A stretch of 9,240 bases of DNA. It comes from a virus. Its lineage: Monodnaviria > Loebvirae > Hofneiviricota > Faserviricetes > Tubulavirales > Inoviridae. Position 1 is the stretch's first letter. Each line of letters begins with the position of its first letter. Positions 887-7,758 of the stretch are shown here, one piece after another. The translations under genes were made by a program, and so were the position numbers. Location of the stretch: the IMG/VR virus record IMGVR_UViG_2541047969_000007, one strand, 5' to 3'. Under the pieces are notes generated by a model, which did not search any database, was not told the origin of the DNA, and saw only the letters and a list, made by a program, of their open reading frames with translations.

Positions 887-2131
887 TCAGTTCAGGTTGT
901 CCCGGAACAGTTCACCGCTCCTCGCGGCGCTGCGGGGCGTCGCCCTGCTCCGGTCAACCTTTCTGACCTGAAGCATCACCATAATATCAGTCTTGTTGCT
1001 TTCACTGGTACGGGAACCGAAGAAGCTCCAGCCGGAACTGGCCTTACTGTCTTTCTGTTCAGCAAGGCCACCAAGTAAAATAATATCACCATCTGCAAGG
1101 CTGACTTCGGTTGTTACATCACGCTTGATAAGGGTTGGCGAGTTATTGACGCCGGTTTCAGTGGTCACAAAGTTGGAAAGCTGCTGCTGAATCTTGAGAT
1201 CCATTGTCCGACTTTTGATTGATGGCGTCACGTTAAACAAAACACCGCTGGAACGATATTCAACGGATTGCGTTGTCGTATTGTTATTCACCGTAACACT
1301 GCCCAGTACTGGCACATCAGAGCCGACTGAAAAAGACGCTGAGGCATTATTTTTTACCCGCAGTCGTGGCGCACTGACAACAGTAAAACGACTGTCGGTT
1401 TTCAGCAGATTGAAAATGGCATCAATGGAGCCGGTTCGAATATTGATAAAATTATCCAGTCCGGCAGCACCAACTGAAATATTGAATTTATCAGACAGAA
1501 TTTTAGCCGCTAAAAGAATGCCGGAGCCGTCAGACTGCGAGGTCTGAACCTCAAAAACATAACCAGAAACAACCACTTCATCACTCATCGTATCCAGCGA
1601 AGTGACCAGTGTTTTCAGGATGGCGATATCCTCTTTCGTACCATAATAAACCAGAATATCACCGGTTCGATTGATGTAGTTGCTTGCCCCTGATGAACCT
1701 TTTAGCGAATCGTCAGAAATCACGGCTCCACTGTTATTGAAGGAGCCTGAAACGTAGCCGCCAAGAATATCAGACAGGTAGGCAACAGAACGGTACTGAG
1801 GCGTATAAGTCCATGTATAACGTGGCTTAACCGGCTCTTTCGGCGTATAGGGCGCGATAAAATCAACACCCTTTTTCGTCCATATTCGAATGTTCATATT
1901 GCCAAGATAACGGGTTACAAATTCCCGTTCATCAATATCAGGTGTTAACCTGAATGTAATCATTCGTTCATCATTAACAAGCTGTGGATCTAGCATATAC
2001 GGGACTTTAAGCACCTCACTGTAAATAAGAGAAATAGCCTCCGGTAGCTTGACTTTATTTAATTCAAGCTCTGACCCTGCGAAAGCACATGAAGAAAATA
2101 GTAGCGTTAATGCGAGTAAAATCTTTTTCAT
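887..2131 (-). CDS. Secretin, filamentous-phage pIV-like outer-membrane export channel
   Basis: 414 aa. N-terminal signal peptide MKKILLALTLLFSSCAFA. C-terminal secretin-domain motifs (GSDVPVLGS and VSLADGDIILLGGL). Start overlaps the stop of the upstream Zot/pI gene (ATGA at 2131). Confidence 0.85.
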   Translation of the reverse strand: MKKILLALTLLFSSCAFAGSELELNKVKLPEAISLIYSEVLKVPYMLDPQLVNDERMITFRLTPDIDEREFVTRYLGNMNIRIWTKKGVDFIAPYTPKEPVKPRYTWTYTPQYRSVAYLSDILGGYVSGSFNNSGAVISDDSLKGSSGASNYINRTGDILVYYGTKEDIAILKTLVTSLDTMSDEVVVSGYVFEVQTSQSDGSGILLAAKILSDKFNISVGAAGLDNFINIRTGSIDAIFNLLKTDSRFTVVSAPRLRVKNNASASFSVGSDVPVLGSVTVNNNTTTQSVEYRSSGVLFNVTPSIKSRTMDLKIQQQLSNFVTTETGVNNSPTLIKRDVTTEVSLADGDIILLGGLAEQKDSKASSGWSFFGSRTSESNKTDIMVMLQVRKVDRSRATPRSAARSGELFRDNLN

Positions 2132-3156
2132 TATTTTTTCCCCGTATAAAGCGTCACACGCTCACCATCAATAATTCCGCTCATCAACATCCCTTTGTAA
2201 TTAAAACTGGATGCAGGAACGGCACGCAAAACACCGGCACCATTAACAAGAATCACAAACGCCCTGCCTTCACTGGTCATTCTCCCTGATATACGCCACT
2301 CGGTTGAAAGTGGCGGTTCAGCTGGTTCTGAGGGAGTATCTGGTGCTGGAGTAGCAGCGGAAGAACGAAACATGGCCGCATCACGTACATCTGTTGTAGT
2401 CAAATCTGGCGAGGGATCGCTTCGGCCAAACGTGCTGAAAAATGAGTAAATCAGCCAGCCTGACCCGATAAACATCAATGGAAAAAGCACAAGAAAGAAC
2501 CTGACTTTGCCAGAATTCCAGATGCTCTGGCGTTTATCTGTCTGCTTTTCATTACCGTTATTTCCTTCATAACTTTTGTAAAGTTCAAAAATATCAGGGT
2601 TATATTTATTGCGATAACTGGTGACGAGGTTGCTTTTATAGATTTTGTGGCCTGAATATACGTCAATGCAGTAATGATTATTCAGGCCCAACGCTTTCAG
2701 CTTGCGCATCCGGTAAGTTGTTTCTATTTTGTCTTTCAGAAAGCGAGCAATATTAGAAAGTGACTGATTTACAATAACCAAATCACAGCTAATACCCGTT
2801 TCAGGGTGCGTAAAATGACGATGTTCAGCAATAAATGATTTCTTCTCAGCCGTCATATCCTTATCGCTACCGAAGATTCGCCATGCTTCATCAATAACAA
2901 TTAAATCACCAAACTGGCAAAAGCTCCCTTCCCCACCTTTAAAAGGAAAGAAATCTGCTTTAAGCACATCATCATTATCCACAACAATAATTTCTCCCGT
3001 TGCATCAGGATAACGTTCGGTGATTTTATCTTTTTGTAAACCATAAATGTTCGTCACAACTCTCCGGCCGCTGGTAAATGCCGGAATAATGACATTGCAA
3101 ACGGCTTCATAACTTTTTCCTGAGCCGGGTATGCCAATATATGCAGAAATAGCCAT
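2131..3156 (-). CDS. Zot/pI-like phage assembly ATPase (inner-membrane morphogenesis protein)
   Basis: 341 aa. N-terminal Walker A P-loop GIPGSGKS. Hydrophobic segment (FFLVLFPLMFIGSGWLIYSFF) in the C-terminal third, typical of pI/Zot topology. Sits immediately upstream of the secretin gene. Confidence 0.85.
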   Translation of the reverse strand: MAISAYIGIPGSGKSYEAVCNVIIPAFTSGRRVVTNIYGLQKDKITERYPDATGEIIVVDNDDVLKADFFPFKGGEGSFCQFGDLIVIDEAWRIFGSDKDMTAEKKSFIAEHRHFTHPETGISCDLVIVNQSLSNIARFLKDKIETTYRMRKLKALGLNNHYCIDVYSGHKIYKSNLVTSYRNKYNPDIFELYKSYEGNNGNEKQTDKRQSIWNSGKVRFFLVLFPLMFIGSGWLIYSFFSTFGRSDPSPDLTTTDVRDAAMFRSSAATPAPDTPSEPAEPPLSTEWRISGRMTSEGRAFVILVNGAGVLRAVPASSFNYKGMLMSGIIDGERVTLYTGKK

Positions 3157-3159
3157 AAC

Positions 3160-6087: not shown

Positions 6088-7140
6088 TTAATGCCAGTTA
6101 CTGGCATGTGAAATACGGTTATAATCGAAAATTAAACCTTTCTCATAAACCCATGATGGAATTTTGGCTGGTTTGGCTTCAAGAGTACGAACCAACGGAA
6201 CAACGTTATTAGAATCCGGTGACTCACAATAAAAGTTAATATCTATTCCGAAAGAAAGTAATTCTTTACGGTGTCGGTAGAATGTAGGTTTCGGTAACAT
6301 CTCTTTCATGTTCGCGCCCTGCTTCCACAATAAATATGTAGACTGTATTTTTCTTGGGAGATTAATTATTTTTTCATCAGTTAATATAGTATTTTGATTC
6401 ATTTCTATTCTCCCTACATAGTCAGAGAATAATTTATTGGGCGTCTCAATATTCCAGCTATTACCAAGCGTAAGATTCAAATCAATTAATTCAGTTGTTC
6501 TTAATGTTAATTCAATGCGTAATTTATCTTTTGACCAGTCCAGTAAACCAGCTTTAACGAATTCGTCTGCCATCTGGTGCCCTTTTTTGCCAGATGTATG
6601 CTCATCATATTTTGAATAAAATTTCAGGCTCCAACGACGGGAGTTTTTCCCTAAGTAAACAGTGCCACCTTTACCACAGGCGCGACCGTGGCGAGTTTTA
6701 GCTTTAAATTCTGCGGCATATAACCATGCGCGGACATTTTCTAATGTTGACAATGAATACATGTAATTGATATCGATGCGCGAGATCTTAAATTGCCCTT
6801 CCATGACCTGCCGATAGGATGGTAGATCATGAGGAATATGCAGTAATGCCAATATTCTGGCGTAAGCTGTTAACACCAACCCTTGCAAATCGTCGGAACC
6901 GATAACAGAGTGACCTTGCAAAAACTTTGATGGATTACCGTCAATGTAGAGATGTGTTGCCCGACCTTCACCATCAGATCCAACAGACCTTACTTTCATT
7001 GTGGACTCATGCGAACCGCGAACGGTCAACCGTTTTACTGTTTCCCACTCCACTGCACCGTCAGCATCGACGCTGACGACACTACCAGCCGGTAACGGTC
7101 GGTGTGTGCAAGGCAGGATTCCGGTAAACCAGTCGATCAT
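6088..7140 (-). CDS. Rolling-circle replication initiation protein (pII/RstA-like)
   Basis: 350 aa. First gene of the minus-strand phage operon, divergent from the HTH repressor. Sequence resembles phage replication-initiator proteins, with conserved Tyr/Lys-rich segments (YLGKNSRRWSLKFYSKYDEH, LRIELTLR). Confidence 0.7.
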   Translation of the reverse strand: MIDWFTGILPCTHRPLPAGSVVSVDADGAVEWETVKRLTVRGSHESTMKVRSVGSDGEGRATHLYIDGNPSKFLQGHSVIGSDDLQGLVLTAYARILALLHIPHDLPSYRQVMEGQFKISRIDINYMYSLSTLENVRAWLYAAEFKAKTRHGRACGKGGTVYLGKNSRRWSLKFYSKYDEHTSGKKGHQMADEFVKAGLLDWSKDKLRIELTLRTTELIDLNLTLGNSWNIETPNKLFSDYVGRIEMNQNTILTDEKIINLPRKIQSTYLLWKQGANMKEMLPKPTFYRHRKELLSFGIDINFYCESPDSNNVVPLVRTLEAKPAKIPSWVYEKGLIFDYNRISHASNWH

Positions 7141-7311
7141 AAGTAGTCACACCCATCAAAATATGTGTCAATAGTCATTTGTGAGCAGATTGAATGGTCA
7201 CAATGTAATATGCTCAGTTCTGACAGTCAATACATTTGCAATGTTTAAATTGTCAGAAATGAGCATCAAATCTAACTATTGAAAAACCACTGTTAAGATG
7301 GAGCCAAGTAG
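7141..7311. promoter_or_regulatory. Divergent control region between rep and repressor genes (promoters and candidate operators or origin)
   Basis: 171-bp AT-rich intergenic region between divergent genes. Direct repeats GTCAATA..CATTTG at 7167..7181 and 7226..7238. CATCAAA at 7154..7160 and 7264..7270. TTGTCA -35-like hexamer at 7250..7255. SD GGAG at 7300..7303 for the repressor gene. Confidence 0.5.
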
Positions 7312-7758
7312 ATGGGCAACAATGAGCATGAAGTTATGGCGGACAAACAGAGAGCAGAACGTATCAAAAAGGTAATTCTGGAACACTCGACTTATGAAGA
7401 ACTGGCCGAGAAGACTGGCATTAGCGTGAGTACGCTGGTCAGGATAGCGTCCGGCAAAACTGAACCTAAATTCAGTGACATCATTCAGATAGCTAAAATT
7501 ACGGGTGCAGACTTAAACACCTTAGCTTATGGCTATGCTCTTGATGTTAAAGAAGAAGCTACCGAGCGGAAGCTAATCACTTCTGCGGATGGATATACTG
7601 ATGAAGAAACCACTAACGCACATAATTTCATCGTGTGGAACATCAGGACACTGGAAAAACAAGATATTCTGGCACTCGCAAGGCAGGTTTCTGCCTTAAG
7701 TTCATACACTTACAGTACTAAAATGTTTATGAAAAAAGCGGTGTCTGGAGAAGAGTAA
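7312..7758 (+). CDS. XRE-family HTH transcriptional repressor (phage immunity repressor, RstR-like position)
   Basis: 148 aa. Helix-turn-helix segment YEELAEKTGISVSTLVRIASGKTEP. Divergent from the rep gene as in CTXphi rstR/rstA. Followed by an intrinsic terminator. Confidence 0.8.
   Translation: MGNNEHEVMADKQRAERIKKVILEHSTYEELAEKTGISVSTLVRIASGKTEPKFSDIIQIAKITGADLNTLAYGYALDVKEEATERKLITSADGYTDEETTNAHNFIVWNIRTLEKQDILALARQVSALSSYTYSTKMFMKKAVSGEE

Follow-up and report, generated by a model that had tools for sequence, protein, structure and literature searches.

A probable complete copy of a CUS-1/Ypfφ-lineage filamentous phage, tandemly integrated at the Escherichia coli dif site

The stretch of DNA analyzed here (the window) is a 9,240-nucleotide (nt) viral record, IMGVR_UViG_2541047969_000007, which carries a run of filamentous phage genes on its minus strand and a divergently transcribed regulator gene on its plus strand. 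We propose that the window is very likely one complete 9,145-bp copy of a filamentous phage (Inoviridae) of the CUS-1/Ypfφ lineage, integrated in tandem at the dif site of E. coli. Coordinates are those of the window unless another locus is named.

The replication module begins with rep (7140-6088, minus strand), which encodes a gpII-family rolling-circle initiator with matches to Pfam Phage_CRI (1e-73) and G2P_X_C (4e-34). An in-frame gene X starts within it at an internal ATG at 6402 (M247), behind a GGGAG Shine-Dalgarno (SD) sequence, and phrog_17464, a PHROG of 100 amino acids (aa), aligns to Rep residues 247-346, starting where gene X does. Directly after rep lies ssb (6076-5759, minus strand; AGGAG SD), encoding a G5P-type single-stranded DNA (ssDNA)-binding protein (Pfam Putative_G5P, 1e-52). 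The closest deposited phage for this module is I2-2 (Lineavirus I22, NC_001332): its gene II product, which also has an annotated gene X, shares 57.8% aa identity with Rep, and its gene V product shares 42% with the G5P protein.

The virion genes follow on the same strand. An 83-aa protein with a C-terminal transmembrane (TM) segment at residues 55-81 occupies the gene VII/IX position (5756-5505, minus strand; phrog_3679, 1e-32). Next is the gene for the pVIII major coat protein (5470-5237, minus strand; phrog_2186, 4e-29; GGAG SD), whose product has a signal peptide ending in FA before AEG and a hydrophobic core flanked by an acidic N-terminus and a basic C-terminus; against the Pfam model Phage_Coat_B it falls below the cut-off (18.9 versus 23.5 bits). 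A terminator-like hairpin, GGGCGAT..ATCGCCC then TTTT, stands directly after pVIII (5203-5225, minus strand). The promoter and terminator scan of the window performed at chance level (19 found versus 21.9 expected) and is therefore left unused for promoter assignment; this one hairpin is retained from it because of its position. Ff phages have a terminator directly after pVIII. Between pVIII and pIII, the sequence and a TM scan bring out a candidate open reading frame (ORF) for a hydrophobic peptide of 27 aa (MEIELWKLGSLLWGIVSAYVVILGLRG; 5103-5186, minus strand; GAGG SD), which is 100% conserved in Ypfφ, in E. coli UTI89 and in Klebsiella spallanzanii and has no family match in profile searches. 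That it encodes a small tip protein of the pVII/pIX kind is speculative.

The pIII-like adsorption protein (5172-3460, minus strand; phrog_3942, 5e-253) ends in a C-terminal membrane anchor, is 99.6% identical to the Ypfφ protein and, by position, would be the counterpart of CUS-1 puvA. The ATG start at 5172 has a GGAG SD 8 nt upstream; the start in the RefSeq annotation (made by PGAP), GTG 5022, has no SD and would remove the N-terminal hydrophobic region. Versions of 520 aa and 570 aa both occur in public databases. Downstream lie genes for a pVI-like minor coat protein (3447-3160, minus strand; Pfam DUF2523, 1e-20; phrog_974, 7e-30; AGGAG SD), a pI/Zot-like assembly ATPase (3156-2131, minus strand; Pfam Zot, 2e-26; phrog_197, 9e-94) with the Walker A motif GIPGSGKS and one TM segment at residues 218-241, and a pIV secretin, the outer-membrane exit channel (2131-887, minus strand; Pfam Secretin, 1e-24; phrog_1012, 'protein IV of M13', 8e-138). 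The secretin has an N-terminal hydrophobic segment and carries the PGAP name GspD.

We judged membership in Inoviridae by a gpII-family initiator with an in-frame gene X, ssb directly after rep, a small coat protein with a signal peptide, an acidic N-terminus, one TM helix and a basic C-terminus, and pIII-like, pVI-like, pI/Zot and pIV secretin genes in that order; the window has all of these. A sequence-only reading made before this analysis had described a complete core of the Ff/CTXφ kind, running rep, ssb, small membrane protein, pVIII, pIII, pVI, pI/Zot, pIV, with structural and assembly functions apparently intact and an XRE gene transcribed divergently. The family matches agree with that order and assign none of the ORFs to unrelated families, a plus-strand ORF at 7312-7758 does oppose eight minus-strand ORFs, and the family assignments together with identity to Ypfφ and UTI89 bear out the core. 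Its strong SD sequences are recognizable at most genes, the PGAP start of pIII at GTG 5022 being one that lacks them. Its overlapping ATGA start and stop codons do not hold up: the TAA that ends pI and the ATG of pIV have a single base in common at 2131 (TAATG), and near 5756 two nucleotides, TT, separate the ssb stop TGA (5761-5759) from the next ATG (5756-5754). The observation was thus confirmed in part, and its interpretation is supported.

Comparison with named prophages places this gene set in a lineage that is already known. Window positions 1-7838 are 99.7% identical over 7,838 nt, and positions 9063-9240 are 99.4% identical, to the Ypfφ prophage of Yersinia pestis NCTC5923, retrieved by a genome search with the pIII protein; Ypfφ is treated by Derbise et al. 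(2007) and in the Ypfφ review (PMC4266046). Positions 1-8281 share 99.45% identity over 8,281 nt with the prophage that E. coli UTI89 has at dif and that stands here for CUS-1, a prophage of E. coli O18:K1:H7 that the same review credits to Gonzalez et al. (2002). Near-identity to the Ypfφ/CUS-1 backbone, one of the features by which lineage was judged, is thus found with both. For the two published phages themselves, 99% identity across a common backbone of 7.1 kb is reported (PMC4266046).

At the protein level the core products are all full length and 98.8-100% identical to their Ypfφ counterparts; adding the XRE protein and the products of two accessory ORFs (156-404 and 550-798) to the eight core proteins gives a set that is likewise full length and 97.6-100% identical. 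The XRE, pIV, pVI, pVIII and ssb proteins of UTI89 are identical to those of the window. A protein-by-protein comparison with Ypfφ found no frameshift or truncation in the window copy, in keeping with the claim that its genes are intact. The sequence-only reading had likened the layout to CUS-1 and Ypfφ; the genome comparison goes further, and by its sequence the element is a member of that lineage, beyond mere likeness. At least 80% of the window is present in 86 of 5,426 complete E. coli genomes, among which six records (H1-H6) match it at 100% over its full length. Searched by megablast with the whole window, the phage collection, in which CUS-1 and Ypfφ have no phage records, returned no match, and protein searches of phages matched only I2-2 and low-identity metagenomic inoviruses. 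The window contains no tRNA or tmRNA gene, which rules out an integrase-type element at a tRNA site, and matches no Rfam family, which rules out known noncoding RNAs.

The extent of the element can be read from the window's ends. Because positions 1-95 recur exactly at 9146-9240, the unit is 9,145 bp long and 9146-9240 is the start of the next tandem copy. Positions 1-15 (minus strand), TACATTATGCGCACC, comprise the XerC-binding arm of dif and 4 nt from the centre of that site, at a junction of prophage with chromosome or with prophage, and the same 15 nt are found again at 9146-9160. In E. coli FDAARGOS_1303, sequence identical to the window lies in an array of three head-to-tail copies, bounded by a perfect dif and by hipA. 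The perfect 28-bp dif occupies 7988-8015 of that locus (L001), with the window beginning at L001 8001, and adjoins the pIV-side end. The far end of the array, adjoining hipA, is a hybrid site in which a phage XerD-like arm and centre are followed by the XerC arm and then by chromosome; the two junctions have only TACATTATGCGCACC in common. Insertion at dif, regeneration of an intact dif at one end and tandem copies, the other features by which lineage was judged, are therefore all seen in this strain. UTI89 has one copy. Its chromosomal neighbors are the same as in FDAARGOS_1303, with fimbrial genes and dif at one end and hipA at the opposite end, and it shares with the window a 99% identical attP and the gene order, the accessory gene c1 included. 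Ypfφ also integrates at dif, in tandem arrays of two to four copies (PMC4266046). In a side observation, a cargo query matched 16 places on the single chromosome NZ_CP092647.1 (E. coli EC5502), suggesting that the copies there either form a very long array in tandem or are dispersed.

Since the junctions and the 9,145-bp unit fill the window, the element reaches past 887-7758 on both sides. That interval, given in the sequence-only reading as the span of the phage, covers the genes described above and stops short of the whole element. The accessory genes fall outside it, as do a candidate plus-strand origin (7769-7816) and an attachment site of the CTXφ type formed by folded ssDNA (9064-9163).

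The attachment site, attP(+), was located from the sequence and its DNA fold (9064-9163, minus strand) and consists of two inverted dif-like sites around a GC-rich stem-loop. The first site reads GGTGCGCATAA, an 11-nt centre, TTATGTTGAAA; the second reads GGTTCGCACAA, a 5-nt centre, TTATGCTAAAG. We take the minus strand to be the packaged strand because the phage genes are encoded on it, and as ssDNA of that strand 9064-9163 is predicted to form a forked hairpin of -31.2 kcal/mol (z -7.6 versus shuffles). Both junction sequences place the crossover in the XerC arm. Thus the features of a CTXφ-type site are all found: a forked hairpin with XerC arm, bulged centre and XerD arm, and crossover on the XerC side. 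None of the ORFs scanned matches a recombinase family in Pfam, hence no phage integrase is seen. Based on these junctions, and on the CTXφ-type literature for the mechanism, we propose that the packaged strand would fold into a forked hairpin mimicking dif, that host XerC would swap one strand pair with dif, and that replication would then fix the insertion, leaving the intact dif on the pIV side and the hybrid site on the cargo side.

Control of the phage is expected to center on the plus-strand gene opposite rep, which encodes an XRE-family helix-turn-helix (HTH) regulator (7312-7758, plus strand; Pfam HTH_3, 2e-9; phrog_3557, 4e-74; GGAG SD). Its product is 100% identical to the XRE-type regulator of the Ypfφ prophage (YPO2273 by position, PMC4266046). 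The 171-bp divergent regulatory region between the two genes (7141-7311) contains a 57-bp near-palindrome at 7210-7266 with TGAGCAT motifs at its ends, and TGAGCA occurs four times within 7182-7328 (147 bp) versus four times in the rest of the window; the motifs and the palindrome are candidate operators. The XRE protein, presumed to be an RstR-like immunity repressor, would repress the rep operon through operators in this region and so give immunity as CTXφ RstR does. In K. spallanzanii the block corresponding to 7141-7768, intergenic region and regulator, has been exchanged as a whole: identity is 40% for the XRE protein, against 97-99% for the products of rep to pVIII. The swapped block lies at 7050-7900 and 11080-11710 of that locus (L003), where the prophage copies are themselves truncated. 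It appears heteroimmune-like, in the manner of CTXφ rstR alleles, which would support an immunity role for the window's regulator.

Just beyond the regulator gene, at 7769-7816 (minus strand), is a hairpin with a 13-bp stem (AACGTGCAGTGTT GGT AATACTGCACGTT; fold z -5.45) followed by a second small hairpin, which together form a candidate plus-strand origin. Within it, a 41-nt stretch (7777-7816) matches the intergenic region of I2-2 at 90% identity and in the orientation that fits the plus strand; it is the only non-coding similarity between the window and I2-2. The origin-like hairpin is kept in Ypfφ and occurs three times in the K. spallanzanii locus, once broken inside the loop. In that broken copy (L003 11057-11089) the loop is joined to unrelated phage sequence, with CCC running into GTAATACTGCACG; a break inside the loop is the pattern expected of a Rep-nick-mediated deletion and hints at the position of the nick. 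By homology, the gpII-type Rep and the gene X product would nick the plus-strand origin and drive rolling-circle replication, and the G5P protein would coat the resulting ssDNA. The segment after pIV (795-890), folded as a possible packaging signal, is weakly structured (z -2.2), and we make no assignment there.

The remaining steps can be modeled on Ypfφ. We propose that pVIII, the pIII-like (PuvA-like) protein, pVI and the small hydrophobic proteins would form a filament, which the pI/Zot ATPase, together with a pIV secretin encoded by the phage itself, would extrude without lysis. This assembly step draws on homology and, at the level of modules, on published Ypfφ knock-outs, in which loss of the replication, morphogenesis or secretion module abolishes particles (PMC4266046). 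Ypfφ is reported to form infectious filamentous particles that measure 1,200 x 8 nm and contain circular plus-strand ssDNA (PMC4266046). Because CTXφ-type integration is irreversible, new genomes would be expected to arise by rolling-circle replication across tandem copies such as those in FDAARGOS_1303; XerC-dependent irreversible integration and rolling-circle production over tandem prophages are both assigned to the CTXφ class (PMC4246890). Circular forms of close relatives are on record. The untypable 9,565-bp circular E. coli 'plasmid' NZ_CP128883.1 (L005) is 99.55% identical to the window over 8,278 nt and is a complete sibling phage genome with other cargo, presumably the replicative form. 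Salmonella assemblies include contigs of 9,145 nt, the exact unit length, and of 9,566 nt.

It is also conceivable that integration proceeds differently, with double-stranded phage DNA recombining in the manner of VGJφ through the duplex site at 9128-9160, and with reversible Xer excision. A duplex junction exists whose XerC arm is perfect and whose XerD-like arm matches at 9/11 positions, and circular episomal forms exist too. The duplex arms, however, are spaced 11 nt apart versus 6 nt in dif, which counts against VGJφ-type integration; a VGJφ-type attP would be one duplex site, about 29 bp long, whose arms are spaced as in dif, whereas here a second inverted dif-like site is present together with a strong ssDNA fold, and Ypfφ, like CUS-1φ, is classed as a CTXφ-type element (PMC4246890, PMC3089051, PMC3442271). 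We consider the VGJφ-style route very unlikely. Hardly credible at all is the reading that the locus is a chromosomal secretion and toxin island and not a phage. It draws on the RefSeq/PGAP names 'type II secretion system protein GspD' and 'zonular occludens toxin family protein', and it is refuted by a full inovirus gene order that includes Rep, G5P, coat proteins, pVI, pI and pIV, by the dif junctions and tandem units, and by identity to a phage with reported virions (PMC4266046).

A domesticated or cryptic prophage that makes no infectious particles in E. coli and is kept for a host-beneficial gene, puvA or one of the accessory ORFs, is a weightier alternative, which we still regard as improbable. 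According to the account in the Ypfφ review, CUS-1 came to light through the fitness defect of a puvA mutant and not through particles, and Ypfφ is mostly extrachromosomal in laboratory E. coli (PMC4266046). Degenerate relatives are also common: besides the truncated K. spallanzanii copies and the second copy in FDAARGOS_1303, there is that of E. coli SCU-484. The SCU-484 prophage (L008 1-3000), at the same dif locus, is a deletion derivative without rep, ssb, the 83-aa gene and pVIII, in which the pIII gene abuts the XRE gene. Against a cryptic state stand the intact core proteins, near-identical to those of Ypfφ, which is reported to make particles, the conservation of the cis sites (attP and the origin-like hairpin), a tandem arrangement that is the one needed for production, and the existence of the sibling as a 9.6-kb circle. 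We therefore retain the interpretation of the window as a complete tandem-integrated phage copy.

Several points nonetheless weigh against that interpretation. In the second FDAARGOS_1303 copy, pVI (DUF2523) is annotated as frameshifted (L001 20305-20591; a 1-nt gap relative to the window copy), so copies within one array are not all intact and do decay. The ambiguous start of pIII makes its signal peptide ambiguous as well. The plus-strand origin at 7769-7816 is proposed from the 41-nt match and the hairpin, and every functional statement on the window copy, particle production included, is transferred from Ypfφ or CTXφ. UTI89 (NC_007946.1, 1,653,000-1,662,600) is a proxy for the CUS-1 reference sequence; we take the strain to be of the O18:K1:H7 clone in which CUS-1 was described. 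As for the regulator, the review treats YPO2273 as an RstR homologue whose repressor role is putative even in Ypfφ (PMC4266046). Finally, no LexA box is found in the rep-XRE intergenic region; the LexA search gave only chance-level matches, all of them outside the regulatory region, and an SOS-controlled promoter like CTXφ PrstA is thus unsupported and mitomycin C induction is not predicted. Since, in addition, the regulator matches only HTH families in Pfam and Ypfφ release is described as low in titre and as occurring under standard conditions without induction, the earlier description of the element as probably inducible finds no support.

Among characterized systems, Ypfφ shares with the window phage dif integration, tandem arrays, the attP hairpin and the XRE protein. 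It differs in its host genus, in its unit length (8.7 kb versus 9.1 kb here) and in having two unrelated ORFs, of 135 and 87 aa, in place of window positions 7839-9062, which carry c1 to c3. The likeness to CTXφ is one of organization. The module order is the same (divergent repressor, rep, coat genes, a pVI/Ace-like gene, pI/Zot); irreversible integration of folded ssDNA at dif by host XerCD is the route of CTXφ and the one predicted here (PMC4246890, PMC3089051); tandem prophages occur in both; and the putative immunity alleles here, like those of CTXφ, are exchanged as blocks of repressor and intergenic region. There is, however, no detectable nucleotide similarity, and the proteins match at family level only (Zot, phrog_1041, 2e-9). 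The window phage has its own secretin, whereas CTXφ uses that of its host; it has a G5P protein instead of RstB, and neither ctxAB nor a LexA box. The attP centres measure 11 and 5 nt, versus 12 and 7 nt in CTXφ (Table II of PMC3089051). Membership in Lineavirus (IKe/I2-2) does not fit: the matches to I2-2 are confined to rep (58%), ssb (42%) and a part of pIV (30%), none was found for pVIII, pIII, pVI or pI, and I2-2 has no repressor, attP or lysogeny.

The accessory genes flank this core on both sides. Beside the intact dif lies an ORF at 156-404 (minus strand; phrog_6642, 1e-53), which PGAP starts at 353 to give 65 aa; its product is 97.6% identical in Ypfφ, where by position it is the attR-adjacent YPO2280a/YPO2281 (PMC4266046). 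A second attR-adjacent ORF, at 550-798 (minus strand), encodes 82 aa that are 100% identical in Ypfφ and UTI89 and has no significant family match in Pfam, NCBIfam, PADLOC or PHROGs. On the other side, c1 (7858-8280, plus strand; phrog_4174, 3e-85) encodes a 140-aa membrane protein with three predicted hydrophobic segments and is common to the UTI89 and Klebsiella elements and absent from Ypfφ. Downstream of it, c2 (8309-8584, plus strand) encodes an ECs_2282 zinc-ribbon protein (NCBIfam NF047912, 4e-18), and c3 (8584-9063, plus strand; phrog_6723, 1e-95) a 159-aa protein with an N-terminal TM segment; an ATGA start/stop overlap at 8584 joins the two genes. Membership of c2 in PADLOC PDC-S64 was rejected, the match (4e-7) covering the zinc-ribbon stretch only. 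The screen of the accessory ORFs against the same four collections yielded no function.

Only the c2/c3 cargo (8282-9064) sets the window apart from the UTI89 prophage. There, c1 is 97% aa identical and a single ORF of 369 aa, with no family matches, takes the place of c2 and c3; the published CUS-1 has orf1 and orf1a on its attL side, and the comparison made here is with the UTI89 proxy. In the cases aligned, this slot between c1 and attP differs among prophages that are otherwise at least 99.4% identical. Some E. coli slots hold a DpnII/MboI-type PD-(D/E)XK nuclease with a DUF6953 protein, and others an AbiJ_NTD4/DUF7014 (STM4504-family) protein, so that two slot cargo types have defence-associated family matches; variant slots were located at L011 21281-22600, L009 3549-4620 and L008 3565-4494. 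Vibrio filamentous prophages with defence cargo feature in the recent literature (a 2024 ISME J paper, PMC11630473). The attP-proximal slot carries exchangeable accessory genes. The fuller idea, that it is a hot-swappable cargo site of dif-integrating enterobacterial inoviruses serving mainly anti-phage or exclusion genes, with c2 and c3 as a two-gene defence module, is a tentative one that we think more apt to be wrong than right by some distance.

Traces of this end of the phage also occur on plasmids. The left dif-like site of attP and the GC-rich hairpin (9066-9137) are 90-95% identical on about 460 plasmids, mostly conjugative, from E. coli, Klebsiella and Salmonella. On pAPEC-1 (L006 3059-4071) the attP segment stands directly after an AbiJ-like gene of the STM4504 family, which shares 69% nucleotide identity with its counterpart in the prophage cargo, and a plasmid attP segment was also located at L007 4001-4099. 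The IncF plasmid segment, as in pAPEC-1, appears to be what is left of the cargo end of an inovirus, with the AbiJ_NTD4/DUF7014 type of cassette, after insertion into a plasmid. The literature searched gave no description, for this lineage, of the cargo slot or the plasmid remnants.

As a discovery the element carries little weight, being a published, widely distributed prophage with identical sequence in several complete RefSeq genomes. Its phage lineage, its integration at dif and a modest fitness role in E. coli K1 and Y. pestis were already published between 2002 and 2014, and apart from the swapped pair of accessory genes (c2/c3) the finding is an ordinary one. Its practical value lies in annotation: PGAP names the genes GspD, Zot toxin and hypothetical proteins and marks neither attP nor origin nor tandem structure. 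Beyond annotation, the cargo slot, the heteroimmune-like block of Klebsiella and the attP-plus-cargo remnant on IncF plasmids would inform how small phages move accessory genes between chromosome and plasmid.

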